Assembly (NCBI GenBank): GCA_007378955.1
Contig: VMGY01000007.1
Span: 8,644 to 72,643, forward strand
From: Parcubacteria group bacterium Athens0714_12
GTDB taxonomy: Bacteria; Patescibacteriota; Patescibacteriia; UBA2591; VMGY01
Length of the DNA: 64,000 bases
Direction: 5' to 3'
Shown here: piece after piece, positions 27,803-47,829 of the stretch
Position numbering within the stretch: the stretch's first letter is position 1
How the letters are laid out: each line of letters opens with the position of its first letter
Notes under the pieces: generated by a model
What the model saw: the letters and a program-made list of their open reading frames with translations, nothing else
The model's database searches: none
Told to the model about the DNA's origin: nothing
Position numbers and translations under genes: made by a program

Positions 27803-29170
27803 ATGAAAAGTATAAAATTCAAAATTATCTTTTTAGGTTTGGTAACGATAATGTTTTTAACTTCTGGTTTTGGCTGTAAATGGACCGAAAGCAGAATTAA
27901 GCAAACCTTGAAGCCGGTTAATTTGGTTATTTGGCGGGTTTGGGACGACGAGGATACTTTTAATGATATTCTGACCGCTTATAAACAAATTCACCCCAAT
28001 GTTACTTTTACTTATAAAAATCTTCGTTATGAAGAATATGAAAATGAGCTTTTAAAAGCCTGGGCTAAAGACGAGGGTCCTGATATTTTTTCTATTCCCA
28101 ATGCTTGGCTTAGAAAATATCAGGATTATATTGTTCCTTTGCCGGAAAAAATCACTCTTTCTTATAAAGAAACCTCTGGTTTTTTAAAAAAAGAAGTAAA
28201 GATTACGCAAAAAACTAAAAAAAGCCTATCTTTAAAAGATTTAAAAAGTAATTTTATAGACGTGGTTTATGATGACGCGGTTATTAGCGATAAAATTTAT
28301 GGTTTGCCGTTAAGCGTAGATACTTTGGCTTTATTTTATAATCGCGACCTTTTAAATCAAGCTCAAATTTCCGAAGCGCCGCAGAATTGGAATCAATTTA
28401 TTGAAGCGATAAAAAAATTAACCGTCCAAGATTATTTAGGCAATATAATTCAATCCGGCGCCGCTTTAGGAACAGCGAGCAATGTAAACAGAAACGTTGA
28501 TATTTTATCTTGCCTGATGTTGCAAACTGGAACAAAAATGGAAGACGGAAATAAAGTTGTTTTTGATAAGCATTCTGAAATATATAAAGATTATTTTCCC
28601 GGCGAAAGAGCTTTGGAATTTTATACCGATTTTGCCAATCCGAGCAAAGAAACATATACTTGGAATGAAAAAATGCCTGATTCTTTGCAAGCTTTTATTG
28701 AAGGGAAAACAGCTTTTTTCTTTGGCTATTCTTATCATCTTCTCCAAATCCAACAACAAGCGCCTAAGTTGAATTTTGACGTAACATTAATGCCTCAAAT
28801 TGAAAGCAGTGGCTACAAAGTAAATTATGCCAATTATTGGATAGAAACTGCCGCGAAAAAAACAAAATTTTCTAATGAGGCTTGGGATTTCATCCAGTTC
28901 GCGGCTTCGCAAGAGCAAGCGGACAAATTTCTTAGCCGCGCCAAAAAGCCGACCGCTTTAAGAAGTTTAATTGAAAAGCAATCAGAAGATTTTGATTTAA
29001 TGTCTTTTGCCAAACAGTTGCTTTCCGCTAAAAGCTGGTATCATGGCAAAGATTTTAACGCCGTGGAAGAAATTTTTAAAGAAATGATTAATCAAACTCT
29101 CAAGGGAGAATTATCCGTGAAAGATATAGTTAAATTGGGAGTGCAAAAGGTTAATCAAACATACAAATAA
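27803..29170 (+). CDS. ABC transporter solute-binding lipoprotein (family 1, sugar type); no permease or ATPase genes adjacent
   Basis: Lipobox LTSGFGC; SBP_bac_1-like sequence; start ATG at 27803 chosen over the track's 27659. Confidence 0.65.
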   Translation: MKSIKFKIIFLGLVTIMFLTSGFGCKWTESRIKQTLKPVNLVIWRVWDDEDTFNDILTAYKQIHPNVTFTYKNLRYEEYENELLKAWAKDEGPDIFSIPNAWLRKYQDYIVPLPEKITLSYKETSGFLKKEVKITQKTKKSLSLKDLKSNFIDVVYDDAVISDKIYGLPLSVDTLALFYNRDLLNQAQISEAPQNWNQFIEAIKKLTVQDYLGNIIQSGAALGTASNVNRNVDILSCLMLQTGTKMEDGNKVVFDKHSEIYKDYFPGERALEFYTDFANPSKETYTWNEKMPDSLQAFIEGKTAFFFGYSYHLLQIQQQAPKLNFDVTLMPQIESSGYKVNYANYWIETAAKKTKFSNEAWDFIQFAASQEQADKFLSRAKKPTALRSLIEKQSEDFDLMSFAKQLLSAKSWYHGKDFNAVEEIFKEMINQTLKGELSVKDIVKLGVQKVNQTYK

Positions 29171-29203: not shown

Positions 29204-29710
29204 ATGACAAAAAAACTAAAAAATAAAAAAATTAAAATTATTTACTTTACTTTAAGTTTCTTATTATTTACTTTTTTATTTTTTAGCGCCGCGCCTATTT
29301 TTGCCCAGGAGCCGCAAGGAATTTTTTCCGACGTGCCTTGTTTTAGGCCGGCCGGGGAGTGCGTTAGCGCGCCCGGCGAACCTTCGCCATGCGAATGCGG
29401 TTTATGCGATTTTCTTTACGTTCTCCTTAAAGTCGCTAATTGGGGTTTAAACGGCATTGGCGCCTTAGCTTTGCTTTTTTTTGTCTTCGGCGGCCTTGTC
29501 TGGCTCACTTCCGCCGGCGATAAAAATCGCGTGGCCGCCGGCAAGAAAATTTTGACAGGAACCGCGCTAGGGATTATAATAATTTTAAGCGCTTATCTGG
29601 TTATAAATTTTACTATTTCCACTTTGACCGGAAAACCGGGACAATTTTATATTAAAAGCGACCAATTAAAAGAATGGTATAATGTCTGTGAAATTAAACC
29701 AAATCAATAA
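29204..29710 (+). CDS. TrbC/VirB2-like small membrane (pilin-like) protein, paralog 1, with an extra Cys-rich insert
   Basis: Signal peptide, hydrophobic helix, conserved GGLVWLTSAGD motif, second TM helix. Confidence 0.5.
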   Translation: MTKKLKNKKIKIIYFTLSFLLFTFLFFSAAPIFAQEPQGIFSDVPCFRPAGECVSAPGEPSPCECGLCDFLYVLLKVANWGLNGIGALALLFFVFGGLVWLTSAGDKNRVAAGKKILTGTALGIIIILSAYLVINFTISTLTGKPGQFYIKSDQLKEWYNVCEIKPNQ

Positions 29711-30056
29711 AAATTTTCTAAAAAAAATTATTTCTTTAATTTTAATAATTATCTTTTTTAATTTGTTTCTTATTCAAATTGACGCCCAGGAAACCCTGCC
29801 AAATCCCATTGGCACGACGGATATTAAAGAATTAATTGCTAGAATTATTACTACTATTTTAGGATTGACCGGCGCGATTGCTTTGGTTTTGTTTGTTTAT
29901 GGCGGGTTGGTTTGGATGACTTCCGGCGGCAGTTCGGAAAAGATAAAAGAGGGAAAAAATATTTTAGTTTGGGCAATATTGGGATTAGTGGTGATTTTTA
30001 CCAGTTATATTATTCTTAATTTTGTTTTTGAAACTTTAGAAAAGGTGACAAAATAA
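29682..30056 (+). CDS. TrbC/VirB2-like small membrane protein, paralog 2
   Basis: GGLVWMTSGGSSEKIKEGKNIL motif followed by a TM helix. Confidence 0.5.
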   Translation: MSVKLNQINKNFLKKIISLILIIIFFNLFLIQIDAQETLPNPIGTTDIKELIARIITTILGLTGAIALVLFVYGGLVWMTSGGSSEKIKEGKNILVWAILGLVVIFTSYIILNFVFETLEKVTK

Positions 30057-30126
30057 ATAATAATTTGCGCGAATTCACATTGAATTTATAGAATGTTGCA
30101 ATTTTTATGAGAGGGGGTGAAAAAAA

Positions 30127-30495
30127 ATGACAAAAAAATATTTATTAGCTGGAATTTTAAGCTTAAGTTTAATGGTTGTGTTAGCTGTGCCCGTGTTAGT
30201 CGGAGCCCAGGATATCGTTGATTGGGATAAAGTGGACGTTGGCTTGAGTAGAAGAGATTTAATTGAGGTAGTTAACGCTGTGATTAGAATTGTTTTAAGC
30301 TTTTTGGGAATAATCGCGGTGGTGATTATTTTGATTGGCGGATTTAATTGGATGACTTCCGGCGGCAGTCAAGAGAAGATAGATGGGGCGAGAAAGGCAA
30401 TAAGCGCGGGCGCGATAGGCTTGGTAATCATATTTACGGCTTACGCGATTGCTTACTTTGTTATTGAACAATTGGCCAGTGTAACCGCTGAATAA
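30127..30495 (+). CDS. TrbC/VirB2-like small membrane protein, paralog 3
   Basis: GGFNWMTSGGSQEKIDGARKAI motif followed by a TM helix; RBS gagggggtg. Confidence 0.5.
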   Translation: MTKKYLLAGILSLSLMVVLAVPVLVGAQDIVDWDKVDVGLSRRDLIEVVNAVIRIVLSFLGIIAVVIILIGGFNWMTSGGSQEKIDGARKAISAGAIGLVIIFTAYAIAYFVIEQLASVTAE

Positions 30496-30504
30496 AATTA
30501 ATTT

Positions 30505-30921
30505 ATGAAGAAATTTTTATCTTTTTGGCTGTATAAAGTATTTTTAATTATACTTTTTACGGGTTTAATTTTGCCGGTTTTCGCGGCTGATGACCATGGT
30601 TTGACGGATATGGCGGAAAAAACAGGATTATATACTTCAAGGACTGATGTATATCTTTTGGTGAGCCAGATAATAAATTTGATTTTGAGTTTTTTGGGTT
30701 TAATAACTGTCATTATAATATTTGTGGCAGGTTTTCAGTGGCTCACTTCCGGCGGAAATTCCGAAACAATTCAAAAGGCCAAAGGGAATATTACCAATGC
30801 CGTAATAGGACTGATAATCATTTTATCCGCTTTAAGTATCAGTATTTTTATAACCGATCAGATAAAAATAGCCACCGGAGTGGAAGGTTCGCGAGGCGGC
30901 AGAGGAATATTGCAGCAATAA
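30505..30921 (+). CDS. TrbC/VirB2-like small membrane protein, paralog 4
   Basis: AGFQWLTSGGNSETIQKAKGNI motif followed by a TM helix. Confidence 0.5.
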   Translation: MKKFLSFWLYKVFLIILFTGLILPVFAADDHGLTDMAEKTGLYTSRTDVYLLVSQIINLILSFLGLITVIIIFVAGFQWLTSGGNSETIQKAKGNITNAVIGLIIILSALSISIFITDQIKIATGVEGSRGGRGILQQ

Positions 30922-30992
30922 ATAAAATTTGTTTTCATAAAAAAATACTCCAACTTTGTTAAGTCGGAGTATTTTATTTTTTTTATCTTCTC

Positions 30993-31567: not shown

Positions 31568-32278
31568 TTATCCCTTGGCCAAGACCAAGCCCCAAACATT
31601 TTTAAAACCCGCTTTTTTAAGAATTTTAGCCGCTTCCCTTAAAGTGGAGCCAGTCGTGGTTACATCGTCAATTAAGATAATTTTTTTATAAAGCGTTTCT
31701 TGAGGAAGCGAGAATGAGATGGAAAAAATATTTTTTACATTTTTTTGCCGTTCTTTTCTTTTTAATTTGGTTTGCGGTTTAGTATTTTTTATTCGTTTCA
31801 AAATTCCGGCCGCCGTTTTTATTTTAAAAAAAGTTCCAATTTCTTCGGCTAAAAGTTCGCTTTGGTTAAAACCGCGCCAGCTAAAGCGTTTTTTATGCAA
31901 GGGAATCGGAACGATTAAAAAATCGTCTTTTTCGGATAAATCAAATTGTCGCAAAAAATTGATTAAAATTTTCCCCAATGGTCTTGATAGGTCAAAAGCA
32001 AAATTATATTTAAAAATTTTGATTGATTTGTTTAATAAAATATTTTCATAAGAAGAAGCGATTAAAATGCCGTCTAATTCACAGGATGAAGTTTTTGAAT
32101 TACTGAAAGAATTAAAAAAATCCCCAGCTTGAGGAAAGAAAAATTTTTGGTTGACAGGGATGTTATTCAAGCATTTTTCACACAACCAGACATCCGCCTT
32201 GCCGCATCCTATACAGGAAATGGGGAATAATAAGTCTAAAAAATATTTTTTTATATTTTGAAGTTTTTTTATTATCAA
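31568..32278 (-). CDS. comFC: ComF family protein (phosphoribosyltransferase domain with N-terminal zinc finger)
   Basis: CIGCG...CEKC zinc finger; PRTase motif IILIDDVTTTGSTL. Confidence 0.75.
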   Translation of the reverse strand: MIIKKLQNIKKYFLDLLFPISCIGCGKADVWLCEKCLNNIPVNQKFFFPQAGDFFNSFSNSKTSSCELDGILIASSYENILLNKSIKIFKYNFAFDLSRPLGKILINFLRQFDLSEKDDFLIVPIPLHKKRFSWRGFNQSELLAEEIGTFFKIKTAAGILKRIKNTKPQTKLKRKERQKNVKNIFSISFSLPQETLYKKIILIDDVTTTGSTLREAAKILKKAGFKNVWGLVLAKG

Positions 32279-33277: not shown

Positions 33278-33595
33278 ATGTTATTGTCAATCCCGCACCT
33301 TTTAAGCACTAAGCTATGCATTGGGTTTATTATCAAAAGTAAAAAGAATAATTTATTATATATTGGCAGCACTCTTAATTTAGAAAAAAGATTTAAAGAG
33401 TTTTGTAACCATCTCAAAGAACATAATGAAGGGAAATCATTGTCAACTAAAAAATATAAACCTTGGGTTTTAGTTTATGCCGAATGTTATTTTTTAAAAG
33501 AAGATGCTTTATCTCGTGAACGAAATCTAAAATATTTTGGAAAAATTTACGCCCAACTTAAAAGAAGAATAAAAAATAGCATTCAGGGTGCTTAA
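33278..33595 (+). CDS. stand-alone GIY-YIG nuclease domain protein (YhbQ/COG2827-like), second copy; start and stop codons lie within the element termini
   Basis: 105 aa; IGFIIKSKKNNLLYIGSTLNLEKRFKEH...R...N GIY-YIG motif pattern; about 25% identity to the 4710-5030 protein. Confidence 0.7.
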   Translation: MLLSIPHLLSTKLCIGFIIKSKKNNLLYIGSTLNLEKRFKEFCNHLKEHNEGKSLSTKKYKPWVLVYAECYFLKEDALSRERNLKYFGKIYAQLKRRIKNSIQGA

Positions 33596-33635: not shown

Positions 33636-34697
33636 ATGAGTATTTTATCGTTTAAAGAAAAAAGTTATTTAGGAGTTGATTTAGGAAGGGGAAGTATTAA
33701 AGTAGTGGAAATGAAAAATGAAAAAGGCAAACCGCAGCTTGTAACTTATGGTTATATAGAAAAAGGAATTGATTTTATTAAAGACGACTCTGAAGATAAA
33801 ATAAAGCAAGCAGCTTTTTACTTGAAAGAAGTTTGCCAAAAATCTCGTGTCGCCACTTCGCAAGTTATCGCTTCTTTGCCGGGATTTTCTGTTTTTAGCG
33901 CCGTGATTAATTTGCCTGTTATGCCGCATAAAGAATTAGTTTCCGCCATTTATTGGGAGGCTAAAAAGTTTATTCCCTTGCCCATAGAAGAAGTGGTTTT
34001 GGATTGGAAAATATTAGAAAATTTAGATAGCCATGACGTTCAAAAAAATGGGAATAATAAAAAAAATTTTAAAATTTTATTAACCGCCGCTTCTCGGAAA
34101 TTAGTTAAAAAATATTTAGAATTATTTAAATTAGCTAATCTGGAATTAATGAGCTTGGAAACAGAGGTTTTTGCCTTGACCCGTTCTCTGATCGGGTACG
34201 ACCCTTCCACGATTATGATTTGCGATATCGGAGCCAAAGTTTCCGATGTGATTATAGTTGAAAATAGCATTCCTGTTTTAAATAGAAGTTTCAACATCGG
34301 CGGAGAATCCATCACAAAAACTATCGCTTCAAATTTAAATATTGATTTTAAAAGAGCGGAACAATTCAAGGTTGATATTGGATTAAACAGCCAGGGCGAC
34401 GGAGTAATTCCGAAAGTAATAGAAGATATTTTAACATCAATAATTAATGAGATTAATTATACGATAGAGCTTTATCAGAGCCAGGGCGCGAAAAAGATAG
34501 AAAAGATAATTTTAACCGGCGGTTCCGCTTTTTTGCCCAATTTATCTTCTTATTTTTCCGAAATTACTAATTTAAAAACATTAATAGGCGATCCTTGGTC
34601 AAGGGTGATTTATCCGTTAGAATTAAAACCGGTCTTAGAAGAATTAGGTCCAAGATTAGCGGTGGCTATTGGTTTAGCGATGAGGGAAGTAGTGTAA
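33636..34697 (+). CDS. pilM: type IV pilus assembly protein PilM
   Basis: Actin-like ATPase fold motifs (LGVDLGRGSIKVV ... ILTGGSA). Confidence 0.85.
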   Translation: MSILSFKEKSYLGVDLGRGSIKVVEMKNEKGKPQLVTYGYIEKGIDFIKDDSEDKIKQAAFYLKEVCQKSRVATSQVIASLPGFSVFSAVINLPVMPHKELVSAIYWEAKKFIPLPIEEVVLDWKILENLDSHDVQKNGNNKKNFKILLTAASRKLVKKYLELFKLANLELMSLETEVFALTRSLIGYDPSTIMICDIGAKVSDVIIVENSIPVLNRSFNIGGESITKTIASNLNIDFKRAEQFKVDIGLNSQGDGVIPKVIEDILTSIINEINYTIELYQSQGAKKIEKIILTGGSAFLPNLSSYFSEITNLKTLIGDPWSRVIYPLELKPVLEELGPRLAVAIGLAMREVV

Positions 34698-34739
34698 ATG
34701 TCTAATAATCATTAGGATTTAGGATTTAATATTATTTTT

Positions 34740-35756
34740 ATGTCCAAAAAAGACATTAATTTATTACCCGAAGATCTTCGGGGGAGAATAAAAATTAATA
34801 CACCCAAAATAAAAATTGAGAAAAGTTTTGAATTGAACGACCCTCAAAAGTCAGAAAAGTTTAAGAATGATAAAATTGAACTTAAAAAAACTTCTCCCAC
34901 CCCTATTTTTACTGAAATCAAAGAAGTTGAAGATATCGCCCCGCTGCCTGGAAAAGAGAGCAGTCGTGAAGAAAAAACAGAAAAGAAAAAAGAATTTTCT
35001 TCTGAAAATGATTTAAAATATCCGGAAGAGAAAACAGAAAATAAAGGCGAAAGCGGCAAAAAAGGAGTTTTAATTATTTCTAAAAAAAAGCCAAATATTT
35101 TTTCTAAATTAAGGCTCATTTTTTCTAAATTTGAAAAAGAAAATTTTTCTTTCAAGAAATTATTTGATTTAACAAAGAAAAAGGATAAGCGCCACTTCCA
35201 TTTAGATGTCAATTTAATTTTTAAAGAAAACGAGTTTTTAAAATCAAAAGAAAAAGAAATATTAGTCAAGATTTATTTAGAAATTATCGCAAGTTTATTT
35301 ATAGTTTTTATTTTTTATTTTTATTTAATTTTTTTAGAATGGAAAATAGGAGACGAAGGCAAAAAAACCGAAGGAGAAATATTAAAAATAGAAGCTCAGA
35401 TAAATAATTTTAAAAAAGAGGAAAAAGATTTGCTTAGCATCCAAGAAAAATTTTTATACGTTAAAGACTTATTTGAAAAACATATTTATTGGACGAAATT
35501 TTTTGATTTTTTAGAAAAATACACCCTTTCCGATGTTTATTACAGTAAATTTGAATATTCTTTAGACAATCCACTTGAATTATCCGGCATCGCCAAGAAC
35601 TCGGAAACTTTAGCGCGCCAAGTCATTTCTCTCCGCAACGCCTCTGATTTTATAGAAAAATTAGAAATAAAACAAATTGACATATTAAAAGAAAAAGAAG
35701 TTTCTTTTGTGTTAAATATAATTTTAGCGCCTGATATTTTTTTAATTAAAGATTAA
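34740..35756 (+). CDS. pilN: PilN-like protein (expanded, with a low-complexity Lys/Glu-rich insert)
   Basis: N-terminal INLLPEDL motif typical of PilN, single TM helix, position after pilM. Confidence 0.55.
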   Translation: MSKKDINLLPEDLRGRIKINTPKIKIEKSFELNDPQKSEKFKNDKIELKKTSPTPIFTEIKEVEDIAPLPGKESSREEKTEKKKEFSSENDLKYPEEKTENKGESGKKGVLIISKKKPNIFSKLRLIFSKFEKENFSFKKLFDLTKKKDKRHFHLDVNLIFKENEFLKSKEKEILVKIYLEIIASLFIVFIFYFYLIFLEWKIGDEGKKTEGEILKIEAQINNFKKEEKDLLSIQEKFLYVKDLFEKHIYWTKFFDFLEKYTLSDVYYSKFEYSLDNPLELSGIAKNSETLARQVISLRNASDFIEKLEIKQIDILKEKEVSFVLNIILAPDIFLIKD

Positions 35757-35757
35757 A

Positions 35758-36315
35758 ATGGAAATAAAAAATAAATTTAAAAATTTTTTAGTTGCTAATT
35801 TTGGCTTATTTAGTTTTATTATCCCTTTGGTTCTTTTATCTTTCAGCTATTTTTATTTATTAGCGCCAAAATATGCTTATTTAAAAGAGATAGGCGGTTT
35901 GACTTTGCAATCTTTAAAGGAAGCAGTTTTAACTAAAGGCGAATATTTATCAAATTTAAAAGAATTAAAAGAAGTTTATAATCGCTTGAGCGATGACGAA
36001 AAAGAGAGATTAAAACAAATTCTTCCTAAAAATAAAGATATTACGAATTTATTCATTCATTTTGAAAACTTGGTTGAGAAAAACGGGCTGGAGTTAGGCG
36101 GGATAAATTTTACTGACTTAAAGTCGGAGGGAAAGATCAAAATTTTAAATATTAAATTGTCTTTAAAAGGCGGCAATTATCAAATTTTTAAGAAATTTTT
36201 ACAAAATTTGGAAAAAGACGTGAAAATATTAGATGTCAATTCGGTTAATTTTTCTGTAGACGGCTATGATTTAAGCATCAATACTTATTATTTGGAAGAT
36301 TCTTCCGGGCAATAA
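35758..36315 (+). CDS. pilO: PilO-like protein
   Basis: Single N-terminal TM helix plus coiled coil; position in pilMNO order. Confidence 0.5.
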   Translation: MEIKNKFKNFLVANFGLFSFIIPLVLLSFSYFYLLAPKYAYLKEIGGLTLQSLKEAVLTKGEYLSNLKELKEVYNRLSDDEKERLKQILPKNKDITNLFIHFENLVEKNGLELGGINFTDLKSEGKIKILNIKLSLKGGNYQIFKKFLQNLEKDVKILDVNSVNFSVDGYDLSINTYYLEDSSGQ

Positions 36316-36342
36316 TTTGATTAATAAGATAAATAATTTAGA

Positions 36343-36645
36343 ATGTCTATTCAACAAGTAATTAATAAAAAGAGACAAAAGATGGAAATAACGGCTTTAG
36401 TCGTTCTTTTGGTTGTAATTATTTTTTTTGTTTATAAAAATTTTTTAGAAAAAAATTTTGTTTATGAAAAAGCGGAAAAAATAGGATTTATTGAATCGCC
36501 GCAAACAGAGCTCTATCCGCCTTTTTCAATCAAGATTTCAGATGTTTTGAACAACTCTAAATTTAATAGCCTAAAAGTTTTTAGCCGGCTGATAGAAGAT
36601 TCGGGTTTAGCCGGCAACCCGAACCCTTTCGTGCCTTTTAAATAG
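36343..36645 (+). CDS. small membrane-anchored hypothetical protein (possible PilP-like)
   Basis: 100 aa, one TM helix, position between pilO and pilB. Confidence 0.35.
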   Translation: MSIQQVINKKRQKMEITALVVLLVVIIFFVYKNFLEKNFVYEKAEKIGFIESPQTELYPPFSIKISDVLNNSKFNSLKVFSRLIEDSGLAGNPNPFVPFK

Positions 36646-36656
36646 CAATATTATTT

Positions 36657-38393
36657 ATGATTAAAAGAGATTATCAAAATAAATTACTCAGTATTTTTTT
36701 GGAAGAAGGATTGCTTTCACCAGATCAAATAAATGAATTAAAGAAAGAATCTTTAAAAACCAAACAAAGCATCGAGGATTTAATTAAAACTAAAAAATTA
36801 ATAAAAGAGGATGAATTATTAATGGCAAAAAGCAAATTTTTTAACCTTCCGACAGTGGATCTTTCTAGGGAAATTATTAAAAAAGATGTTTTGGAAATTA
36901 TTCCCAAAGAATTAGCTGAAAATTATCAGATGATCGCTTTTGGTAAAATAGGAAATAAATTAAAGGTGGCAATTGAAGACCCTGATAATTTAAAAGCCAA
37001 AGAGGCAATAGAGTTTTTAGCGCGCAGTAAGGATTTAAAGGTAGAATATTATTTAGCCAGTAAAGAAGTATTATCCAATATTTTACAACGGCACGAAGAG
37101 TCAAAAAAAGAAATAGAAGAAGCTTTGTCAGTGGCCGAAGGCAAGGCAAAAGTTGTTTCAAGAACATCATTAAAGGAGAAAGGTTTTGAGGAAATAATAA
37201 AAGGCGCTCCCATTTCCAAAATAATAAGCGTAATTTTAAGGGACGCGGTGGAGGGGGGAGCTTCTGATGTGCATATTGAGCCAGAGGGAGAGGTAAGTCG
37301 GGTGAGATACAGGGTTGACGGAGTTTTGCGCGTGGTTCTTACCTTGCCTAAATATATACACAGTTCCCTTATTTCAAGAATTAAAGTTTTAGCTAATTTA
37401 AAATTAGATGAAACAAGAATTCCTCAAGATGGAAGAATCAGAGAAATATTTGATAACAAAATAATTGATTTTAGAGTTTCTACCTTTCCTTTATTGGATA
37501 ATGAAAAAGCGGTAATGAGAATTTTAAAAACCGGGGAAGCTCTTACTTTGGAAGAGCTTGGTTTTTGGGGCAAGGGATTGCAAGTAATCGAAAGAAATAT
37601 TCAGAGGCCTTCGGGATTGTTTTTGGTTACCGGGCCGACGGGCAGCGGGAAAACTACCAGCCTTTATTCTGTTTTAAATATACTTAATAAAGAAAGCATT
37701 AATATTATTACCTTGGAAGATCCAATAGAATATTATTTAGAAGGTGTTAATCAGTCGCAGGTAAGGCCGGAAATAGGATTTAATTTTGCTTCCGGCTTAA
37801 GGGCAATTTTGAGGCAAGACCCGAATGTCGTCATGGTGGGAGAAATCAGGGATTTTGAAACAGCGGAATTGGCTATTCACGCGGGTTTAACCGGTCATAT
37901 CGTTCTTTCAACTTTGCACACCAATGATACTTTCGGGGCCGTTCCTCGTTTGATTGATATGAAAATAGAGCCATTTTTAATCGCTTCCACTTTAAATATA
38001 ATAATCGCGCAAAGATTAGTAAGAAAAATTTGTCCTGATTGCAAAGAAGAAGATGTTTTGCCAAAGGGGGTAATAAAAGAAATTTACGCGGAAATAGAAA
38101 ATATTCCTAATTTAGAAAAATATTTGCCTCAAAAAACAGAAAAAATGAAATTTTACAAAGGCAAGGGATGCTCTAATTGTCAAAATAGAGGGTATCAAGG
38201 AAGAATAGCGATTACCGAAGTATTGGATATAACAGACGAGATGAAAGAAATTATTACCAACGGCTGTAAAATAGATGAAGTAAAAAAAGAATTCAAAAAT
38301 CAAGAAATGCTTTCTATGAAGCAAGACGGGATTATAAAAGCAATTAAAGGATTTACTTCTTTGGAAGAAATAATAACCGCGACAAGGACATAG
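36657..38393 (+). CDS. pilB: type IV pilus assembly ATPase PilB (GspE family)
   Basis: Walker A GPTGSGKT, Asp/His boxes, tetracysteine C..C...C..C, N-terminal GspE_N domain. Confidence 0.9.
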   Translation: MIKRDYQNKLLSIFLEEGLLSPDQINELKKESLKTKQSIEDLIKTKKLIKEDELLMAKSKFFNLPTVDLSREIIKKDVLEIIPKELAENYQMIAFGKIGNKLKVAIEDPDNLKAKEAIEFLARSKDLKVEYYLASKEVLSNILQRHEESKKEIEEALSVAEGKAKVVSRTSLKEKGFEEIIKGAPISKIISVILRDAVEGGASDVHIEPEGEVSRVRYRVDGVLRVVLTLPKYIHSSLISRIKVLANLKLDETRIPQDGRIREIFDNKIIDFRVSTFPLLDNEKAVMRILKTGEALTLEELGFWGKGLQVIERNIQRPSGLFLVTGPTGSGKTTSLYSVLNILNKESINIITLEDPIEYYLEGVNQSQVRPEIGFNFASGLRAILRQDPNVVMVGEIRDFETAELAIHAGLTGHIVLSTLHTNDTFGAVPRLIDMKIEPFLIASTLNIIIAQRLVRKICPDCKEEDVLPKGVIKEIYAEIENIPNLEKYLPQKTEKMKFYKGKGCSNCQNRGYQGRIAITEVLDITDEMKEIITNGCKIDEVKKEFKNQEMLSMKQDGIIKAIKGFTSLEEIITATRT

Positions 38394-38461
38394 AATAAGA
38401 AATTTCTAATGTTAAATTTCTAATTTCTAATAGAAGATATTAAAATTTAGGATTTTTAATT

Positions 38462-39661
38462 ATGATATTCCAACATAGGTCTAAAAATAAAATAGGAGAA
38501 GATTTTGGCGGATTGGTAGAAGCCTCTTCCATAGATGAAGCAAGCGATCTTTTAAGAGACCGAGGTTTAGTGGTCATTTTTTTAAAAGAGCAAGAATCAG
38601 CGAAATTAGGGCAATTAAAAGTTTTTACCAAAATAAAAAGCAAAGATTTGGTGATTTTTTTTAGGCAATTGTCAGTAATGATTTCATCCGCTTTTCCTAT
38701 AGTCCAAGCCTTGAGAATAGTCGGCAAACAAGTTGAAAATTCTAATTTGAAAATAATAATTTCTGAAATTGCCGATGAGGTTGAAGGAGGAAACAAACTT
38801 TCATCTTCTTTGGCCAAATATTCAAAGATTTTCAGTAATTTTTTTGTTAATATGATAAAAATAGGCGAAAGTTCCGGCAAATTAGATGAAATTCTTAATT
38901 ATTTGGCTGACCAGCAGGAAAAAGATTATGAATTAATGAGTAAGGTAAAAGGAGCAATGACTTATCCAATTTTTGTTTTGTCGGCATCCGTAGTCTTGGG
39001 AATTTTTATGATGACTTTTATGATCCCAAGATTATCAGGCATTTTAGAGGAAACTGGCGCTACGCTTCCTTTGCCTACAAGGATGTTAATTGGGGTAAGT
39101 AATATATTTACTAATTATGGGATAATTCTTTTTATGCTCGTTTTATTTTTCTTTATTTTTTTCAGGCTTTATTTAAAAACCCCCCAAGGAAAATACCAAT
39201 GGGATTATTTTAAGCTGAAAATTCCTGTTTTCGGAATCTTTTTTCAAAAAATTTGCTTAATCCGCTTTACGAGAAGTTTAAATACTTTAATTATCGGGGG
39301 CGTTCCTTTGACAAATAGTTTGGAAATAGTCAGCGAGGTGGTGGATAATAGCGTTTACAGAGATTTAATTAAAAAAACTATCAAAGAAGTGGAAGACGGC
39401 AATCCAATAGCCACTGTTTTTTTGCAAAACAAAACTATCCCCACGATGCTTTCGCAAATGTTGGACGCCGGGGAGCAAACAGGAAAATTAGATGTTGTCC
39501 TAAGCAAATTATCCAGTTTTTATGGGAGGGAAATAGATATTATGATTGATAATTTAATGACTCTTATTGAGCCGATTATTCTTATCGTGATGGGTATAGG
39601 CGTGGGCTTGATGGTGGCGGCGTTTATTTTGCCAATGTATAATTTAGCCGGCAGTTTTTGA
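38462..39661 (+). CDS. pilC: type IV pilus platform protein PilC (GspF family)
   Basis: 399 aa, two GspF-type repeats, 3 TM helices. Confidence 0.85.
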   Translation: MIFQHRSKNKIGEDFGGLVEASSIDEASDLLRDRGLVVIFLKEQESAKLGQLKVFTKIKSKDLVIFFRQLSVMISSAFPIVQALRIVGKQVENSNLKIIISEIADEVEGGNKLSSSLAKYSKIFSNFFVNMIKIGESSGKLDEILNYLADQQEKDYELMSKVKGAMTYPIFVLSASVVLGIFMMTFMIPRLSGILEETGATLPLPTRMLIGVSNIFTNYGIILFMLVLFFFIFFRLYLKTPQGKYQWDYFKLKIPVFGIFFQKICLIRFTRSLNTLIIGGVPLTNSLEIVSEVVDNSVYRDLIKKTIKEVEDGNPIATVFLQNKTIPTMLSQMLDAGEQTGKLDVVLSKLSSFYGREIDIMIDNLMTLIEPIILIVMGIGVGLMVAAFILPMYNLAGSF

Positions 39662-39803
39662 TTCATTTATTTTATTTTTTAGCTGTGGATAACTAAAAGG
39701 TTTTAAAATAATGTTTTTTATTGTATAATAAAGATAATAATTAATATTCGCGATAATAAGAATACATTAATTCGCGATCAAGGAGAGGGGGTGAAAAAAA
39801 TAA

Positions 39804-40259
39804 ATGAAAAGAAAAGGTTTTACGTTAATTGAGTTATTGGTGGTTATCGCTATCATTGGCTTGCTTTCCACTTTAGCAGTCACTGCTTTAGGCGGAGCAA
39901 GAAAGAAAGCGAGAGACGCCAGAAGATTGTCTGATATTAAGCAGATTCAAACAGCCTTGGAAATGTACGCGTCAGATTCAGGAACTTATCCGATCACGGC
40001 TGGCGGCATCACTTACACAGACATAGGTGTAACTGGAGGAAGTCTTGTCTGTTTGAGCAGCGGCGGTTTCGGAGCAACGGGTTGCGCGAATGCTTATATG
40101 GCAAAAATCCCCGCGGGTCCCAATACCAGTGAATATTATAAATATTCAGCAGCGGCAGCCAGCACTACTTATAATATCCGCTACACCTTAGAGCAAGCCG
40201 TAGGAGACATCACGGAAGGCATGCATTATGCCAATCCCGGAGGCGTTGCTAATCCATAA
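39804..40259 (+). CDS. pilA: type IV major pilin (prepilin with class III signal peptide)
   Basis: MKRKGFTLIELLVVIAIIG prepilin cleavage/methylation motif; strong RBS gagagggggtg. Confidence 0.88.
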   Translation: MKRKGFTLIELLVVIAIIGLLSTLAVTALGGARKKARDARRLSDIKQIQTALEMYASDSGTYPITAGGITYTDIGVTGGSLVCLSSGGFGATGCANAYMAKIPAGPNTSEYYKYSAAAASTTYNIRYTLEQAVGDITEGMHYANPGGVANP

Positions 40260-40358
40260 TAACATTTAAGTCCTAGGCCTTAGGTGTTTTAATCCCCATT
40301 GTTCTCTATAAGCAATGGGGATTTGCTTTGTTTTTCCAAGATAGCATATAATTAAAAT

Positions 40359-42551
40359 ATGCGGGAAAGAATAGAAAAATATATTGAAATAATTTTAGAA
40401 GTTTTTTGGCTTCTAATTATTTTTTTGATTCCCATTTATTTTAACTGGTATCATAGTTATTCTGTTTTTGAGCTGGGCAAAATCGTTGTTTTCAGGGTCT
40501 TGGTTGAAATAATGCTTTTGTTTTTTTTGCTTAAAATTTTGTTTTTTAAATTAAAAACAAAGGTATATTTCAAAAAACTTTTACCATTTTTTGCCTTTTT
40601 TTTAGTTGTTTCTTTGGCTACTTTTTTCTCTTCGCATTTTTATATCAGCTTCTGGGGCTCTTTTTTTAGATATTTGGGGCTTTTTAGCTTATTCCATTAT
40701 TTTATTTTTTTCTTAATTTTAGTTTTTTGTTTAAAAACAGAAGCGCAGATAAAAAGAATTATTTTAGCTGTTTTATTTTCTTCTTTGGTTGTTTGTTTAT
40801 ACGCTTGTTTGCAAATATTCGGATTAGACCTTTTTTCTTGGTCAGAAGAAGGTTTGCGCGCGACTTCTACTTTCGGCCAGCCGAATTTTTTAGGAAGTTT
40901 TTTAATTTTAGTTTTTCCTTTAACGATTGCCGGCTTTAAGTTTTGGCAATCTTCCCTAATGAGGCTTTTTTTGATTGTCAGCGGCTTGCTGCAAATTTTT
41001 GTTTTGATTTTTACTTTCAGCCGAAGTTCTTGGCTGGGTTTTCTGGGTGCTATTTTTTTTCTCCTCGCCTTTTATTTTTATTTGGCGGGAAAAAGAAAAT
41101 CGCGCCTTTTAATTTATTTAATAATATTTTTAAGTTTATTGGCGTCAATTTTTTTAATTTCCAATAATTATTTAGTTAATTCAGACAATCTTTTTTTTAG
41201 CAGGATTGCCTCTGTTGTTGATTTTAACGCCCCGACGGCGAAAATAAGGTTATTGTATTGGAAAGCGGCCCCGCAAATTATAAAGGAATGGCCGGTTTTG
41301 GGATATGGGCCAGACACTCAAATTTTTCCTTTTGTTGAGCATTATTCGCCAGAAGCTTCTATTTATGAAGCGATAAATTCCCATCCGGACAGGGCGCATA
41401 ATGAAATTTTGGATATTTTGATCACCACCGGCATTTTAGGTTTAATAAGCTATCTTTTTTTGATTGGCGGTATTTTTTATCAAGGCTTGAAGAAAAAATC
41501 GTTTTTTGCCGCGATTCTGCTTTCTGCTCTTTTTGGACATTTTATCGCCAACCAATTTGGCTTTTTTACCATCGCGGATTTGCTTTATTTCTGGTTGATT
41601 TTAGCTTTGATTACGATTATAGTTAATAAAGATAATCAAGAGAAAGAATACCGATTGAATTTTAGTTTAATTTCCAAATTATTGATTTTATCCGCTTTTT
41701 TGGGCGCTTCTTTTATTTTAATTAAGTATAAAAATATAAATTTACTGATTGCGGATTATCATTTTTATCAAAGCAGAAAAGAGGTTAGAGACAAGGAATT
41801 AGTAAAACTTTTAGACCGATATGAAGAAATATATAAATATAATTTTTACGAATCTTATTATTACCGCCAGGAAGCGGAAGATGTTTTAAATTTAACGGCT
41901 AAATTTAAAGACAAGAATTTAAAAAAAGACATTTTAGAAATTGTTTTTAAAAATTTTAATGATATACCCGAAGATACGCAAGCAATTGAGTTTTTGCTTT
42001 TAAAAGGGCAATTATTATCTGCCTATGGAGAAATAGAGCCGGCTAAATTTGAGGAAGCGGAAGAAGTGTTTTTAAAGCTTTCGCAAACAGCGCCGCGAAT
42101 GGCGGTCATTTACAATGATTGGGGAAGGATGTATTTATTGAAAAAAGATTATGAAAAAGCGATAGAAAAGCTGGAAAAAGCATTAATTTTATACCCGATA
42201 AATCATCCTGACATAGATTGCTGCAACCGCAGGTCGCAGATTGAAAAAGAAATGAGCGTGGTTTATCATAATTTAGGCGATGTTTATTTTTTTCAGAAAG
42301 ATTACCAAAAAGCGATAGAAAATTATGAATCAGGGCTTAAATTACAACCTCTTGAACCTTTATTTCATAAAAAACTGGCCGACGTTTATTATTTGGAAGG
42401 AAATTTAGAGCAAGCAATCAAAGAAAATTTGAACGGTTTGAGATTGGAGCCGAAAAATAAAGATTGGTATGAAAATTTGATTTTGCTTTATCAAGAAAAA
42501 AAAGATTTAAAGAAAGTTAAAGAATACCAAGATAAAATTTCAAAGTTATGA
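40359..42551 (+). CDS. O-antigen ligase (Wzy_C) family membrane protein with C-terminal TPR repeats; candidate pilin O-oligosaccharyltransferase (TfpO/PglL-like) by position
   Basis: 12 or more TM helices, Wzy_C-type loop, TPR region after residue 480; immediately downstream of pilA. Confidence 0.55.
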   Translation: MRERIEKYIEIILEVFWLLIIFLIPIYFNWYHSYSVFELGKIVVFRVLVEIMLLFFLLKILFFKLKTKVYFKKLLPFFAFFLVVSLATFFSSHFYISFWGSFFRYLGLFSLFHYFIFFLILVFCLKTEAQIKRIILAVLFSSLVVCLYACLQIFGLDLFSWSEEGLRATSTFGQPNFLGSFLILVFPLTIAGFKFWQSSLMRLFLIVSGLLQIFVLIFTFSRSSWLGFLGAIFFLLAFYFYLAGKRKSRLLIYLIIFLSLLASIFLISNNYLVNSDNLFFSRIASVVDFNAPTAKIRLLYWKAAPQIIKEWPVLGYGPDTQIFPFVEHYSPEASIYEAINSHPDRAHNEILDILITTGILGLISYLFLIGGIFYQGLKKKSFFAAILLSALFGHFIANQFGFFTIADLLYFWLILALITIIVNKDNQEKEYRLNFSLISKLLILSAFLGASFILIKYKNINLLIADYHFYQSRKEVRDKELVKLLDRYEEIYKYNFYESYYYRQEAEDVLNLTAKFKDKNLKKDILEIVFKNFNDIPEDTQAIEFLLLKGQLLSAYGEIEPAKFEEAEEVFLKLSQTAPRMAVIYNDWGRMYLLKKDYEKAIEKLEKALILYPINHPDIDCCNRRSQIEKEMSVVYHNLGDVYFFQKDYQKAIENYESGLKLQPLEPLFHKKLADVYYLEGNLEQAIKENLNGLRLEPKNKDWYENLILLYQEKKDLKKVKEYQDKISKL

Positions 42552-43426
42552 TTAGTTATCTTATAAATTTTTTAAAAGTAAAATTGCATAAATTAAAAAG
42601 GATGCTTTCTTTGCCGAGGGAATGGCTTGTTTTAGATATTGGGAGCGGCAATGGTCCTTTTCCGAGAGCGGACGTTTTGTGCGATAAATACATTGAAGAT
42701 ACGCAAAGGGTTGATAAATTAGTTATTGACCGGCCGTTTGTCATTGGGGACATAAACGCTTTGCCTTTTTTGGATAATAGTTTTGATTTTATATTTTGTT
42801 CGCATATATTGGAGCATACGGATAATCCGGAAATAGCCATAAAAGAACTTATGAGAGTGGGGAAAAGAGGATATATTGAAGCACCGACCGAATTCCAGGA
42901 AAAAATGCAAAGCACTTTTTCGCATAAATGGCTTATCAAAAAAGAGGGAGAAGCTCTCATTTTTTGGGAAAAAGAAAAAGAGATCTTTGATGAATGCCTT
43001 CAGAAAAATATTAGAAATTTAATAGATAAAAACGACAAAGCGTATTTAACTTTTTTTTATAGACATCATAATTTATTTAACATAGAGCATTATTGGGAAA
43101 AAGAAATAAAATTTAAAGTTTTGAGGCGAAATATTGACACAAAAGATGATATAAAAGAATCTGTATTTTCTCGCCAACAACTTCTGGCGCAGATAGATAA
43201 AAATAGCTCTAAAATTCCTTTTGGTTTTAGGCGTTTTTTAAAATTTATGATAAAAATTATTTTTACTAAAGGGAAAAATATTGATTTATTACAACTTTTA
43301 GCTTGCCCAAAGTGTAAAAATAAAATGAGTCTTTTAGAAAAAGACGTATTAGCATGCAGCTCTTGTGATAGTAAATTTTTAATTCATAAAAATATACCAA
43401 TTATGCTAAAAGAATATATTTTATGA
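42548..43426 (+). CDS. class I SAM-dependent methyltransferase with C-terminal Trm112-like zinc ribbon
   Basis: LDIGSGNGPF motif; C-terminal CPKC...CSSC. Confidence 0.6.
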   Translation: MISYLINFLKVKLHKLKRMLSLPREWLVLDIGSGNGPFPRADVLCDKYIEDTQRVDKLVIDRPFVIGDINALPFLDNSFDFIFCSHILEHTDNPEIAIKELMRVGKRGYIEAPTEFQEKMQSTFSHKWLIKKEGEALIFWEKEKEIFDECLQKNIRNLIDKNDKAYLTFFYRHHNLFNIEHYWEKEIKFKVLRRNIDTKDDIKESVFSRQQLLAQIDKNSSKIPFGFRRFLKFMIKIIFTKGKNIDLLQLLACPKCKNKMSLLEKDVLACSSCDSKFLIHKNIPIMLKEYIL

Positions 43427-44316
43427 CCGGTATCAGACTTTCTATAATAATCGTAAATTATAATACAGACACGCTTTTGAAAGATTGCTTGAATTCTATT
43501 TTTCAATATCCGCCGAAAAAGCAGTTTGAAATAATAGTTATAGACAATGGTTCCACGGATGATAGTGTTATAATGCTCGAAAAAGATTTCTCTAATATTC
43601 AATTGATAAAAAATAATTCTAATCTTGGGTTTGCCAAAGCAAATAATATAGGAATAAAATTAAGCCAAGGCGACTATGTTCTTCTTTTAAATAGCGATAC
43701 CTTAATTTTGCCTGAATCCCTTAATAAAATAATAAATTATATGGACTCTCATTTGTCGGTGGGAATATTGGGTCCAAGATTGACAGGGTTGAATGGAGAA
43801 ACTTTGCAGATGTCTTGGTGCGGAGCGCCCATTTCTTTAAGCGGGGAGATTGTTATAAAACTTTTTTCGCCAAAATATATTTCTAAATACAGGTTCGCGC
43901 GTTTTATAGTAGATTATATCCAAAGACGAGAAAGGAAAGTCATGCATATTGCGGGAGCTAGTATGATAATCAGAAAAAAAGTTTTTAAAGATATTGGCTT
44001 GCTTGATGAGAATTTTTTTCTTTTTTTCGAGGAACCTGATTTTTGTTGGCGAGCGCGAAAAAAATGTTGGGATGTAGTTTTTAATCCAGACATTAAAGTT
44101 ATTCATAAATTAGGTTCATCAACGAAAAAATTGGGCAGTTCAGTTATGATACATTATAGAAAGAGTCAACTTTATTTTTACAAAAAACACCATTCAAAAT
44201 ATCAACAAAATTGCTTAAGATTATATTTACTGATTAAGTTTCACGCCTTAAAAATTTTACATCAAAAAAACGCGGAAATTTATAATCAACTAATTAAATT
44301 AGTGAAAGAGTCATAA
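43423..44316 (+). CDS. family 2 glycosyltransferase
   Basis: LSIIIVNYNT...DNGSTDDS, DxD, GT2 fold motifs. Confidence 0.8.
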   Translation: MTGIRLSIIIVNYNTDTLLKDCLNSIFQYPPKKQFEIIVIDNGSTDDSVIMLEKDFSNIQLIKNNSNLGFAKANNIGIKLSQGDYVLLLNSDTLILPESLNKIINYMDSHLSVGILGPRLTGLNGETLQMSWCGAPISLSGEIVIKLFSPKYISKYRFARFIVDYIQRRERKVMHIAGASMIIRKKVFKDIGLLDENFFLFFEEPDFCWRARKKCWDVVFNPDIKVIHKLGSSTKKLGSSVMIHYRKSQLYFYKKHHSKYQQNCLRLYLLIKFHALKILHQKNAEIYNQLIKLVKES

Positions 44317-44498
44317 AATAAAGCCAATTTATTTTTTTAAAGGAATTCAGCATCCAATGAGGTTTTGATAATAATATTATTTTTGGCGGAACGAGGCGCG
44401 TCAAAAAATGTATGAAAATTTTTGTAATAAGTTTATAATTAATAATAAAAAGAGCGGTTGTCAGATGTTGGCGACTGCGCGGGATATTTTAAAAAGCA

Positions 44499-45293: not shown

Positions 45294-45296
45294 AAA

Positions 45297-46130: not shown

Positions 46131-46201
46131 AATTTAAATTTTATTTATCATTTGTTTTTAATAATTAAACATAGTCTTAAATTTGAAAATAGAAAAATAA
46201 C

Positions 46202-46714: not shown

Positions 46715-46761
46715 ATAATTGGTTTATAATTTTTAAATATTGTGTTAAAATTTATAAAGAT

Positions 46762-47819: not shown

Positions 47820-47829
47820 TAATTTAAAA

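Follow-up and report, generated by a model that had tools for sequence, protein, structure and literature searches.

The 64,000-nucleotide stretch of DNA analysed here (the window), from the Parcubacteria group bacterium Athens0714_12 of class ABY1 (assembly GCA_007378955.1), carries four consecutive small ORFs on the + strand at 29204-30921, whose products belong by sequence to the TrbC/VirB2 pilin superfamily, within its Patescibacteria branch (T4SS_pilin in Pfam). Divergent arrays of VirB2-like pilins in Patescibacteria have already been published (Wang 2023; Quinonero-Coronel 2025); the new element of this study is the near-invariant pairing of such arrays with a solute-binding protein (SBP) lipoprotein. 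I lean towards the view that a T4SS encoded elsewhere in the genome assembles the four proteins into a surface filament, that the SBP acts with them, and that they serve host contact or uptake and not plasmid conjugation. The features of the locus are the following.

27803..29170, + strand: SBP_bac_1-family lipoprotein, 455 aa; lipobox LTSGFGC; Pfam match
29204..29710, + strand: pilin paralog 1, 168 aa; PF18895 29.5 bits; "first-pilin" class
29682..30056, + strand: pilin paralog 2, 124 aa; PF18895 46.5 bits; the most canonical, TrbC-like
30127..30495, + strand: pilin paralog 3, 122 aa; PF18895 30.6 bits; GAGGGGGTG, a ribosome-binding-like sequence, lies 5' of it
30505..30921, + strand: pilin paralog 4, 138 aa; PF18895 39.8 bits; Gly/Arg-rich C-terminal tail
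30942..30975, strand not assigned: terminator-like hairpin from RNA fold; A-run and U-run on its flanks

The SBP gene ends 33 nt before the start of pilin 1, and paralogs 1 and 2 overlap by 29 nt. The hairpin sits between the array and a convergent lipoprotein gene, folds at -14.9 kcal/mol (z = -6.2 against shuffles), and was recovered by repeat search as inverted repeat I21. The SBP gene, pilins 1-4 and the terminator appear, as far as sequence can tell, to form one conserved transcription unit in that order. A promoter scan of this AT-rich region gave 21 sites against 14 expected and was given no weight, apart from one perfect consensus site. At the DNA level the paralogs share a single element, a box of 17 nt that codes for W(L/M)TS(A/G)G, at 29501, 29913, 30349 and 30739, and the repeat search found neither silent cassettes nor long repeats or invertible elements around the array.

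The initial annotation had described four tandem genes of 122-168 aa, each encoding a signal peptide, a helix, a conserved box, a Lys-rich turn and a second helix. The ORFs, which lie where it had placed them, agree with this, as do the alignment and the hydropathy profiles, the turn being more exactly K/R-containing. In each paralog a Sec signal peptide precedes two helices with a W(L/M)TS(G/A)G loop between them; the three hydrophobic segments per protein correspond to this leader and the two helices. In the alignment the box reads GGLVWLTSAGD, GGLVWMTSGGS, GGFNWMTSGGS and AGFQWLTSGGN in paralogs 1-4, and A-x-A-type leader sites can be read from the sequences as FA/QE, DA/QE, GA/QD and FA/AD (the slash marking the cut). 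AF2 models of the array proteins are helical hairpins; mature paralog 2 is a two-helix hairpin with a pLDDT of 87.7 and helices at 13-44 and 50-88. The paralogs are as divergent as had been claimed, at 27-36% identity within the array (the figure is identity to paralog 1), and by alignment and hydropathy the variation lies in the N- and C-termini, which are predicted to be exposed. Paralog 1 has a Cys-rich N-terminal ectodomain and one further Cys in its C-terminal tail, and the Cys-rich insert already remarked on, VPCFRPAGECVSAPGEPSPCECGLCDF, occurs in it only, among the four.

All four proteins score independently above the Pfam gathering cutoff of PF18895 T4SS_pilin (26.6 bits; E 8e-7 to 4e-12), and the array is therefore judged to be no chance pattern; PF18895 is also matched by 63/63 relatives. 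Kinship to PF04956 TrbC/VirB2 holds at the superfamily level only. None of the four window proteins reaches the cutoff of that family (27.9 bits), the best being paralog 3 with 14.4 bits and E 0.044, while 24 of the 63 relatives match it at E <= 0.01 (best E 2.9e-8), and orthologs of paralog 2, for example P0015, match it too. When the family was compared by hhalign with the verified Agrobacterium VirB2, P was 4e-4 with 34% identity over 41 columns, and the register holds across the whole segment between the mature N-terminus and the W-M motif. The likeness to VirB2/TrbC first proposed, and the profile-HMM comparison recommended as its check, are thus borne out by PF18895 in all four proteins, by PF04956 among relatives and by hhalign, but not by PF04956 in the window proteins themselves. 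Paralogs 2-4 match NCBIfam NF045849 at E ~1e-7 with 30-32 bits, below its curated 40-bit cutoff. Searching PDB sequences with a profile brought VirB2 to the surface at E ~4 only, and fold searches were non-discriminating (best E 0.3-0.4), with an archaeal conjugation pilus at rank 3-4 beside the ATP-synthase c subunit. Four consecutive pilin genes in a Patescibacteria genome, at 27-36% identity, make an array as defined in PMC12102498 (at least two PF18895/PF04956 genes in tandem or one non-pilin gene apart in a Patescibacteria genome), where array members average ~25% identity and reach 54% at most.

The SBP gene upstream, a partner of the array at nearly every homologous locus, had been overlooked in the initial annotation. 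Its product matches Pfam SBP_bac_1 at 1.9e-25, its lipobox Cys is invariant in 8 orthologs, and its PDB relatives are sugar/oligosaccharide ABC binding proteins (best 57 bits); the family counts at least 3913 members (E <= 1e-20). A pilin ORF lies no more than 200 nt downstream of the SBP gene in 74 of 75 evaluable homologous loci, with a median gap of 14.5 nt, and the pair stays while its flanks vary between loci (ComM, SMC, GalU, CMAS and others). ComM is directly upstream of the SBP gene in 30 loci, and in 14 loci RecA follows two genes after the first pilin. At the 86 SBP-pilin loci surveyed no ABC permease or ATPase recurs beside the SBP gene, no large Walker-A ORF occurs within 8-10 kb, and VirB4 is never near. 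Large ORFs near arrays were considered as VirB4 and identified instead as SMC, ClpB, H+-PPase, DUF2079 and LTD/PKD proteins. A literature search for Patescibacteria, solute-binding protein and VirB2 jointly found no paper, and neither array paper (Wang 2023; Quinonero-Coronel 2025) mentions an SBP partner of the arrays.

Pfam surveys and the gene tables of matching contigs, which together cover nearly all of the window, contain no VirB4, VirB6, VirD4 or relaxase, in agreement with the initial annotation. Furthermore, no T4SS core genes were found within ~38 kb upstream of the array (including the flank of a near-identical strain) or ~35 kb downstream; VirB3 is missing from window and flanks as well, and the flanks also lack coupling-protein and relaxase genes. 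None of the ten window ORFs that lack a Pfam family shows more than one hydrophobic region, whereas a VirB6 would be polytopic. The absence of nearby core genes counts against a filament built by a T4SS. VirB4 is listed as present in GCA_007378955.1 (Table S1 of PMC12102498), and homology and this published table are the only two ties between the array and a T4SS; VirB4 occurs in five of the six genomes checked, which is the same as the background rate of 80% and carries no information. With VirB4 listed in its genome and with 441 pilin arrays of 2-11 pilins each recorded in 383 assemblies (Quinonero-Coronel et al. 2025 Microb Genom), the array is no isolated curiosity. Of 1948 assemblies in that survey, only 1135 have the pilin close to virB4. 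The setting of the array is chromosomal housekeeping DNA, with ComFC two genes downstream and a type IV pilus cluster, able to serve competence, 2.7 kb downstream.

The array shows positional orthology. The window paralogs are 40-56% identical to same-position paralogs of other genomes against 27-36% for array neighbours, and because they are closer to same-position orthologs than to their own neighbours, the duplications are old and their order is kept. In other loci, each of the nine best matches of paralog 1 is the pilin that comes first behind the SBP gene. Paralog 2 finds second-position pilins and single-copy Falkowbacteria pilins at 46-56% identity, paralog 3 finds pilins at positions 2-4 of other arrays at 43-50%, and the best matches of paralog 4 are later array members at 35-48%. 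First pilins are longer and richer in Cys than other array members (at least four Cys in 44% against 7%), and paralog 1 belongs to this Cys-rich "first pilin" class. In a locus search seeded with a trimmed core alignment, pilin copy number among relatives, which the initial annotation had proposed examining, does vary, from 1 to 12. Some relatives encode covalent concatemers of 2-17 hairpin units, and some natural concatemers have one signal peptide followed by 6-8 hairpins with short linkers between them.

Against a near-identical strain, 19 of 21 differences over 9.9 kb lie in three genes, those for the SBP and the first two pilins, a hot spot of strain variation, although the comparison draws on a few metagenome-assembled contigs and the differences cluster as in recombination tracts. 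Paralog 1 differs from its counterpart in this 99.8%-identical strain by 10 nt changes that give 5 aa changes, all in the ectodomain, with the Cys kept. Differences in these three genes fit surface-exposed parts.

What, then, do the four proteins do? The leader of each paralog would be cut off by signal peptidase, leaving a hairpin that spans the cytoplasmic membrane, its two termini on the outer side and its basic W(L/M)TSGG-K loop on the inner side. A T4SS encoded elsewhere in the genome may then extract the subunits and polymerise them to form a short filament or conduit at the surface, on whose outer face the variable N- and C-terminal segments would be shown. The four paralogs would be old specialised subunit types and not interchangeable variants, with paralog 2 as the core TrbC-like type and paralog 1, whose ectodomain is predicted to be disulfide-rich, perhaps as an adhesive or initiating subunit. 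The SBP lipoprotein, which would be anchored on the same face of the membrane, may act with the pilins as a chaperone, a docking factor or a binder of host glycan. The likely role would be contact with, or uptake from, a host cell by an episymbiont. That this role is something other than conjugation had been suggested at the start and matches the published view (PMC10633639, PMC12102498, PMC12857230).

The pairing with the SBP could instead reflect a module that works without a T4SS, in which the SBP and the ordered hairpins would form a hetero-oligomeric membrane ring or channel that imports or senses a host-derived sugar or nutrient. I regard this as rather unlikely, despite coupling in 74 of 75 loci, a position beside VirB4 in 0 of 86, and an SBP that comes with no ABC permease or ATPase. 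Ancient paralogs that keep their positions are what fixed subunit roles predict. The natural concatemers in which 6-8 linked hairpins share one signal peptide also fit, concatemers of 2-17 units are awkward for a model of single subunits that are extracted and polymerised, and the ATP-synthase c subunit ranks similarly to pilins in the fold searches. However, no SBP-hairpin transporter of such a kind is known, and the sequence family is clearly that of the VirB2/TrbC superfamily. Family members in Saccharibacteria, moreover, lie inside a T4SS cluster and are co-essential with it (PMC10633639), and VirB4 occurs in five of six genomes checked, though this is the background rate. In a more specific form, which I advance only tentatively and think no likelier, the SBP and the ancient ordered VirB2-like hairpins would be a dedicated ABY1 envelope machine, genetically uncoupled from the T4SS cluster: a filament or ring of fixed composition that captures host glycan or nutrient, with the Cys-rich first pilin and the SBP facing the host, and with the poly-pilins of relatives (2-17 hairpins, one signal peptide) as fused versions.

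The initial annotation had raised a variable antigen repertoire as one possibility, and the 2025 paper (Quinonero-Coronel et al.) suggests a similar variable or host-range repertoire, in which the paralogs would be fast-diversifying alternative surface subunits that evade or match host strains. Low identity within the array, variable parts at the predicted exposed termini, five ectodomain changes in paralog 1 with the Cys conserved, copy numbers of 1 to 12 and the precedent of Bartonella/Anaplasma VirB2 paralogs, as cited in that paper, all fit the idea. It is weakened by the closer likeness of same-position orthologs (40-56% against 27-36%), by four intact genes in one operon, by the absence of silent cassettes, long repeats and invertible elements from the surroundings of the array, and by the recombination-tract-like nature of differences seen in few metagenome-assembled contigs, and I find it improbable. 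As a variant of the T4SS-built filament, the pilins might be a ComB2-like conduit that feeds DNA to the competence machinery, an idea raised in PMC11665869. ComFC lies near the window array and also near that of S. epibionticum (SEML1_0021, K02242), ComM and RecA recur at 30 and 14 SBP-pilin loci, comF, recG and radA occur in ABY1 T4SS loci, and most patescibacterial T4SS are without a relaxase (Quinonero-Coronel et al. 2025). Such neighbours, however, are common housekeeping genes of tiny genomes, the type IV pilus cluster 2.7 kb downstream could itself serve competence, and deletion of comEC in S. epibionticum ends competence but not viability whereas the pilins are essential; a DNA-uptake conduit is quite improbable. 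A classical conjugative-element pilus, or an unrelated holin, bacteriocin or type IV pilin, is scarcely credible. A generic small architecture with two TM helices is its sole support, and genomic context (chromosomal housekeeping surroundings, and a window that lacks a relaxase, a coupling protein, an integrase and VirB4), PHROGs, Pfam/NCBIfam and viral contigs effectively refute it. None of the four proteins has an N_methyl (PF07963) match or a class III leader, as a type IV pilin or T2SS pseudopilin would, and the window encodes genuine type IV pilins elsewhere, at 39804, 46202 and 47250. The different domain that the initial annotation had named as a refutation (holin, bacteriocin) does not appear in Pfam or NCBIfam, PHROGs gave no match, and no relatives lie on viral contigs.

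To the existence of pilin arrays this window adds nothing fundamental. The array does bear on how ultra-small episymbiotic bacteria acquire host resources, and it offers three testable handles: a near-invariant lipoprotein partner with a sugar-binding fold, whose ligand can be determined; a conserved division of labour in which the first pilin is Cys-rich and the second canonical; and strain-level change concentrated in predicted exposed parts. If an SBP-pilin module does work without a T4SS, the "pilin" label for a family of at least 90,000 clusters will need rethinking.

Among known systems, Helicobacter pylori ComB2 is likewise VirB2-like and part of a relaxase-less T4SS for import, and competence genes lie near the array here; however, there is no ComB-type operon at this locus, and essentiality in Saccharibacteria opposes a competence-dependent role. 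Agrobacterium VirB2 and RP4 TrbC resemble the window proteins in a Sec leader predicted to be cut at Ala/Gln, two helices and a W-M at the end of helix 1, whereas the window proteins fall below the PF04956 cutoff and belong to a monoderm host with no adjacent virB operon. The Mbov_0395 family (Mycoplasma ICEs, NF045849) is likewise pilin-like, with two helices, and comes from a monoderm system of the MPF-FATA type, but this Mycoplasma protein is encoded on a mobile ICE and not in arrays. Bartonella/Anaplasma VirB2 paralogs share tandem amplification and divergence of a pilin gene, and they have been suggested to serve host-surface or immune variation (cited in Quinonero-Coronel et al. 2025); those are diderm animal pathogens with arrays within virB loci, whereas the paralogs here are ancient and position-keeping. 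In Patescibacteria itself no pilus has ever been observed on a T4SS (PMC12857230), and the T4SS with its pilin array is essential in the one genetically tested species, its function being termed completely unknown (PMC11665869). The homologous PF18895 array of S. epibionticum (SEML1_0014-0019, Wang et al. 2023 Cell) lies inside an essential T4SS cluster (PMC10633639), whereas tens of kb separate the array here from any T4SS gene, and its partner is an SBP_bac_1 lipoprotein gene. In other respects the Patescibacteria arrays and this one are alike: PF18895 with or without PF04956, genes in tandem, low identity (~25% published and 27-36% here), and a chromosomal position in relaxase-poor genomes with comF nearby.

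The initial annotation described four tandem genes for small membrane proteins, and ORF calling, alignment and hydropathy bear out that observation as a whole, with coordinates matching exactly and all four genes on the plus strand. The array and the other features discussed here are as follows.

Features of the array and its surroundings (window positions)
27803-29170, +, SBP_bac_1 lipoprotein (SBP; Pfam), immediately upstream of the array
29204-29710, +, paralog 1, ORF of 168 aa
29682-30056, +, paralog 2, ORF of 124 aa
30127-30495, +, paralog 3, ORF of 122 aa
30505-30921, +, paralog 4, ORF of 138 aa
30993-31487, -, predicted lipoprotein of 164 aa (LIVTGCSS), convergent with the array
31568-32278, -, ComFC-like gene (double zinc ribbon plus phosphoribosyltransferase), two genes downstream of the array
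8187-9236, -, PilT, encoded away from the type IV pilus cluster
15580-17325, +, LigD_N (3'-phosphoesterase)-like gene, split by an intein that carries a LAGLIDADG homing endonuclease
4710-5030 and 33278-33595, two small GIY-YIG ORFs
54333-54938, +, membrane-anchored DsbA-like thioredoxin (Thioredoxin_4, 26 bits), adjoining Lgt

By alignment, the four proteins are 27-36% identical to one another and have in common the box (G/A)G(L/F)xW(L/M)TS(G/A)G with a turn containing K/R after it; the only DNA they share in a repeat search is a 17-nt box encoding the W-x-T-S-x-G motif. Each has three hydrophobic segments, an N-terminal leader and two long helices, with A-x-A-type leader ends (FA/QE, DA/QE, GA/QD and FA/AD in gene order, the slash marking the end). 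The AF2 model of paralog 2 is a confident helical hairpin (pLDDT 80.5 at full length, 87.7 for the mature form). The Cys-rich insert noticed earlier is present in paralog 1 only, which has five Cys there and a sixth near the C-terminus. There is an overlap of 29 nt between paralogs 1 and 2, a gap of 70 nt before paralog 3 and one of 9 nt before paralog 4. Downstream of paralog 4, RNA folding gives a strong hairpin that ends in a U-run (-14.9 kcal/mol, z = -6.2). A perfect sigma-70 consensus (TTGACA, 17 nt, TATAAT) at 29552-29580 (+) falls in the 3' portion of paralog 1, with the start of paralog 2 ~100 nt further on; this may represent an internal promoter or a chance match in AT-rich DNA.

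The proposed kinship with TrbC/VirB2 is supported at superfamily level. All four paralogs exceed the Pfam gathering score of PF18895 (T4SS_pilin), but none reaches the threshold of PF04956 (TrbC/VirB2), the top score being 14.4 bits. An in-register alignment of the family profile to Agrobacterium VirB2 (sequence confirmed against PDB 8cue) spans the stretch between the mature N-terminus and the W-M motif (41 columns, 34% identity, P = 4e-4). Of 63 family members, all match PF18895 and 24 also match PF04956 at E <= 0.01 (best 2.9e-8). Matches of the window proteins to the NCBIfam Mycoplasma ICE pilin-like protein family are sub-threshold, and structure searches are compatible with a pilin without being diagnostic. 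The family comprises 90,315 representative clusters at E <= 1e-3. Holin and bacteriocin identities, which the initial annotation had named as examples of a domain that would contradict it, were rejected together with a type IV pilin identity, as searches of Pfam, NCBIfam, PHROGs and viral contigs found nothing in the paralogs that points to a phage protein, a holin, a bacteriocin or a type IV pilin.

Paralog 2 is 100% identical to Athens071412_412 on a 74-kb contig of Parcubacteria group bacterium Athens0714_12, which GTDB places in class ABY1. Pfam surveys and gene tables of matching contigs, covering nearly the whole window plus 8.6 kb upstream and ~1.2 kb downstream from near-identical strains, put the array among housekeeping genes, with HtpX and ComFC just downstream. 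VirB4, VirB6, VirD4 and relaxase are absent from this region, and the ten window ORFs lacking a Pfam family, with no more than one hydrophobic region apiece, do not resemble a polytopic VirB6; the earlier remark that T4SS genes are missing nearby is thus upheld. The assembly, GCA_007378955.1, is listed as VirB4-positive in a published table (Quinonero-Coronel et al., 2025, PMC12102498). The 164-aa lipoprotein matches neither a Pfam nor a PHROGs family, and arrays at other loci do not have it as a conserved neighbour. The window also holds a complete type IV pilus cluster at 33.6-48.6 kb (33636-48582; PilM, a PilN-like ORF, PilO, PilB, PilC, three N_methyl pilins and PilD), with PilT apart at 8.2 kb; embedded in it, at 40359-45293, are an O-antigen-ligase/TPR protein, a GT2 glycosyltransferase and two methyltransferases. 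Homologs of the GIY-YIG ORF at 33278-33595 sit between pilin genes in two other arrays (loci L073 and L121), which suggests mobile homing-endonuclease-like genes. The DsbA-like thioredoxin may act as the oxidase of the Cys-rich pilin ectodomain and in lipoprotein maturation.

A genome scan for the pilin placed an SBP directly before the first pilin at 8 of 42 related loci, window counted; no array locus for which upstream sequence exists departs from this, and the gaps range from -44 to +138 nt. In the reverse test, a metagenome scan seeded with SBP gave 80 loci. Taking all loci together, downstream DNA was sufficient at 75; a pilin ORF followed within 200 nt in 74 of the 75 (median gap 14.5 nt), and after 425 nt in the remaining one. 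The lipobox Cys of the SBP is invariant. Genes upstream of the pair vary (among them ComM, SMC, GalU; CMAS in the window), and on the downstream side the loci have an HTH_25 protein, RecA or glycosyltransferases, or share nothing. Because the pairing is kept while the outer flanks differ, the pair is a unit and more than simple synteny. Neither an ABC permease nor an ATPase is a recurrent neighbour of the pair, and at none of 86 loci is there a large Walker-A ORF (VirB4-like) within 8-10 kb. At least 3,913 proteins belong to the SBP subfamily; those with a named source are from Kuenenbacteria, Falkowbacteria and other Patescibacteria.

Copy number does vary among relatives, as the initial annotation had envisaged, from 1 to 12 pilins per locus, most frequently seven. 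First pilins behind an SBP account for all nine best matches of paralog 1; the counterparts of paralog 2 are pilins in second position and the single-copy Falkowbacteria pilin (46-56%), and those of paralogs 3 and 4 are later array members. All these identities across genomes exceed the identity within the array; judged by sequence, the paralogs are old and ordered. First pilins have a median length of 156 aa (136 for other array members), contain at least four Cys in 44% of cases (7% of others) and carry, as does paralog 1, a motif ahead of helix 1 that reads C..C(T)L(N)DF or NYxLDDF. Furthermore, some relatives are single polypeptides of 2-17 pilin hairpin units. Examples are P0182, P0188, P0199 and L036:48-1925; the first two have one N-terminal signal peptide and then TM1-loop-TM2 units with linkers of ~25-35 aa, and the last has three near-identical units (Cys-rich domain plus hairpin) in one ORF in the standard code.

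Compared over 9.9 kb, a strain of 99.8% identity has 21 differing positions, 19 of them in SBP (6 nucleotide changes, 3 amino-acid changes), paralog 1 (10 and 5) and paralog 2 (3 and 2, in the loop), leaving 2 in the other 7.6 kb. The changes in paralog 1 all fall within the Cys-rich ectodomain and spare its Cys residues. Such clustering, seen in metagenome assemblies, suggests recombination or selection on exposed parts but falls short of proof. In a second near-identical strain (L001), an indel of 4 nt sits at the stop codon of paralog 2, and the 70-nt spacer that precedes paralog 3 carries five substitutions; by this comparison, the stop/spacer region (30051-30097) is another local hot spot.

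The analysis itself establishes only family membership and gene anatomy. From VirB2 biology and the Saccharibacteria essentiality data, the best-supported reading, which I consider slightly better than an even bet, is a T4SS-built surface filament or conduit of Sec-inserted hairpins. Sec would insert the hairpins so that both termini lie outside and the basic loop faces the cell interior, a distal T4SS would polymerise them, and the variable termini would make up the exterior. Paralog 2 would represent the core subunit type, paralog 1 a specialised one and the SBP a co-factor, e.g. chaperone, docking factor or host-glycan binder. A classical conjugation pilus is rejected.

The strict SBP-pilin coupling, the consistent absence of VirB4 nearby, the ancient, ordered paralogs and the covalent concatemers with 2-17 hairpins behind a single signal peptide all favour the main rival, an SBP-hairpin membrane assembly independent of T4SS, which I regard as rather improbable. 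The initial interpretation is supported in part: the VirB2-like family and the lack of T4SS genes nearby hold, but its variable-antigen idea, in the form of a pure antigenic-variation repertoire, is less likely, since the paralogs show positional orthology and a repeat search found no switching apparatus. A ComB-like role in DNA uptake is hinted at by ComFC, ComM and RecA, which recur as neighbours of SBP-pilin modules or arrays, but published genetics count against it.

A screen of 3,035 Patescibacteria genomes found VirB4 in 2,417, VirB2-like pilins in 1,948 of these and pilins near virB4 in only 1,135, together with 441 arrays of 2-11 divergent pilin genes each (mean identity ~25%), for which host-range or antigenic versatility was proposed (Quinonero-Coronel et al., 2025). 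An array distant from virB4 is common. Since arrays of divergent pilins are already published, the window array is a further example, and its four genes are an ordinary, already described Patescibacteria feature. That study does not mention the SBP partner, the cited T4SS papers do not mention single-chain multi-hairpin relatives, and a literature search found no paper joining Patescibacteria, solute-binding protein and VirB2. New leads on an open question, all of them modest, come from the invariant SBP partner, the first-pilin class and the concatemers. According to a 2025 review, no monoderm T4SS other than the patescibacterial one has potential pili; it also raises, as speculation, an uptake conduit (PMC12857230). 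Finally, Southlakia epibionticum has six essential PF18895 pilins within its T4SS cluster (Wang et al., 2023, PMC10633639), and its comFC (SEML1_0021) likewise lies two genes after the pilin array.
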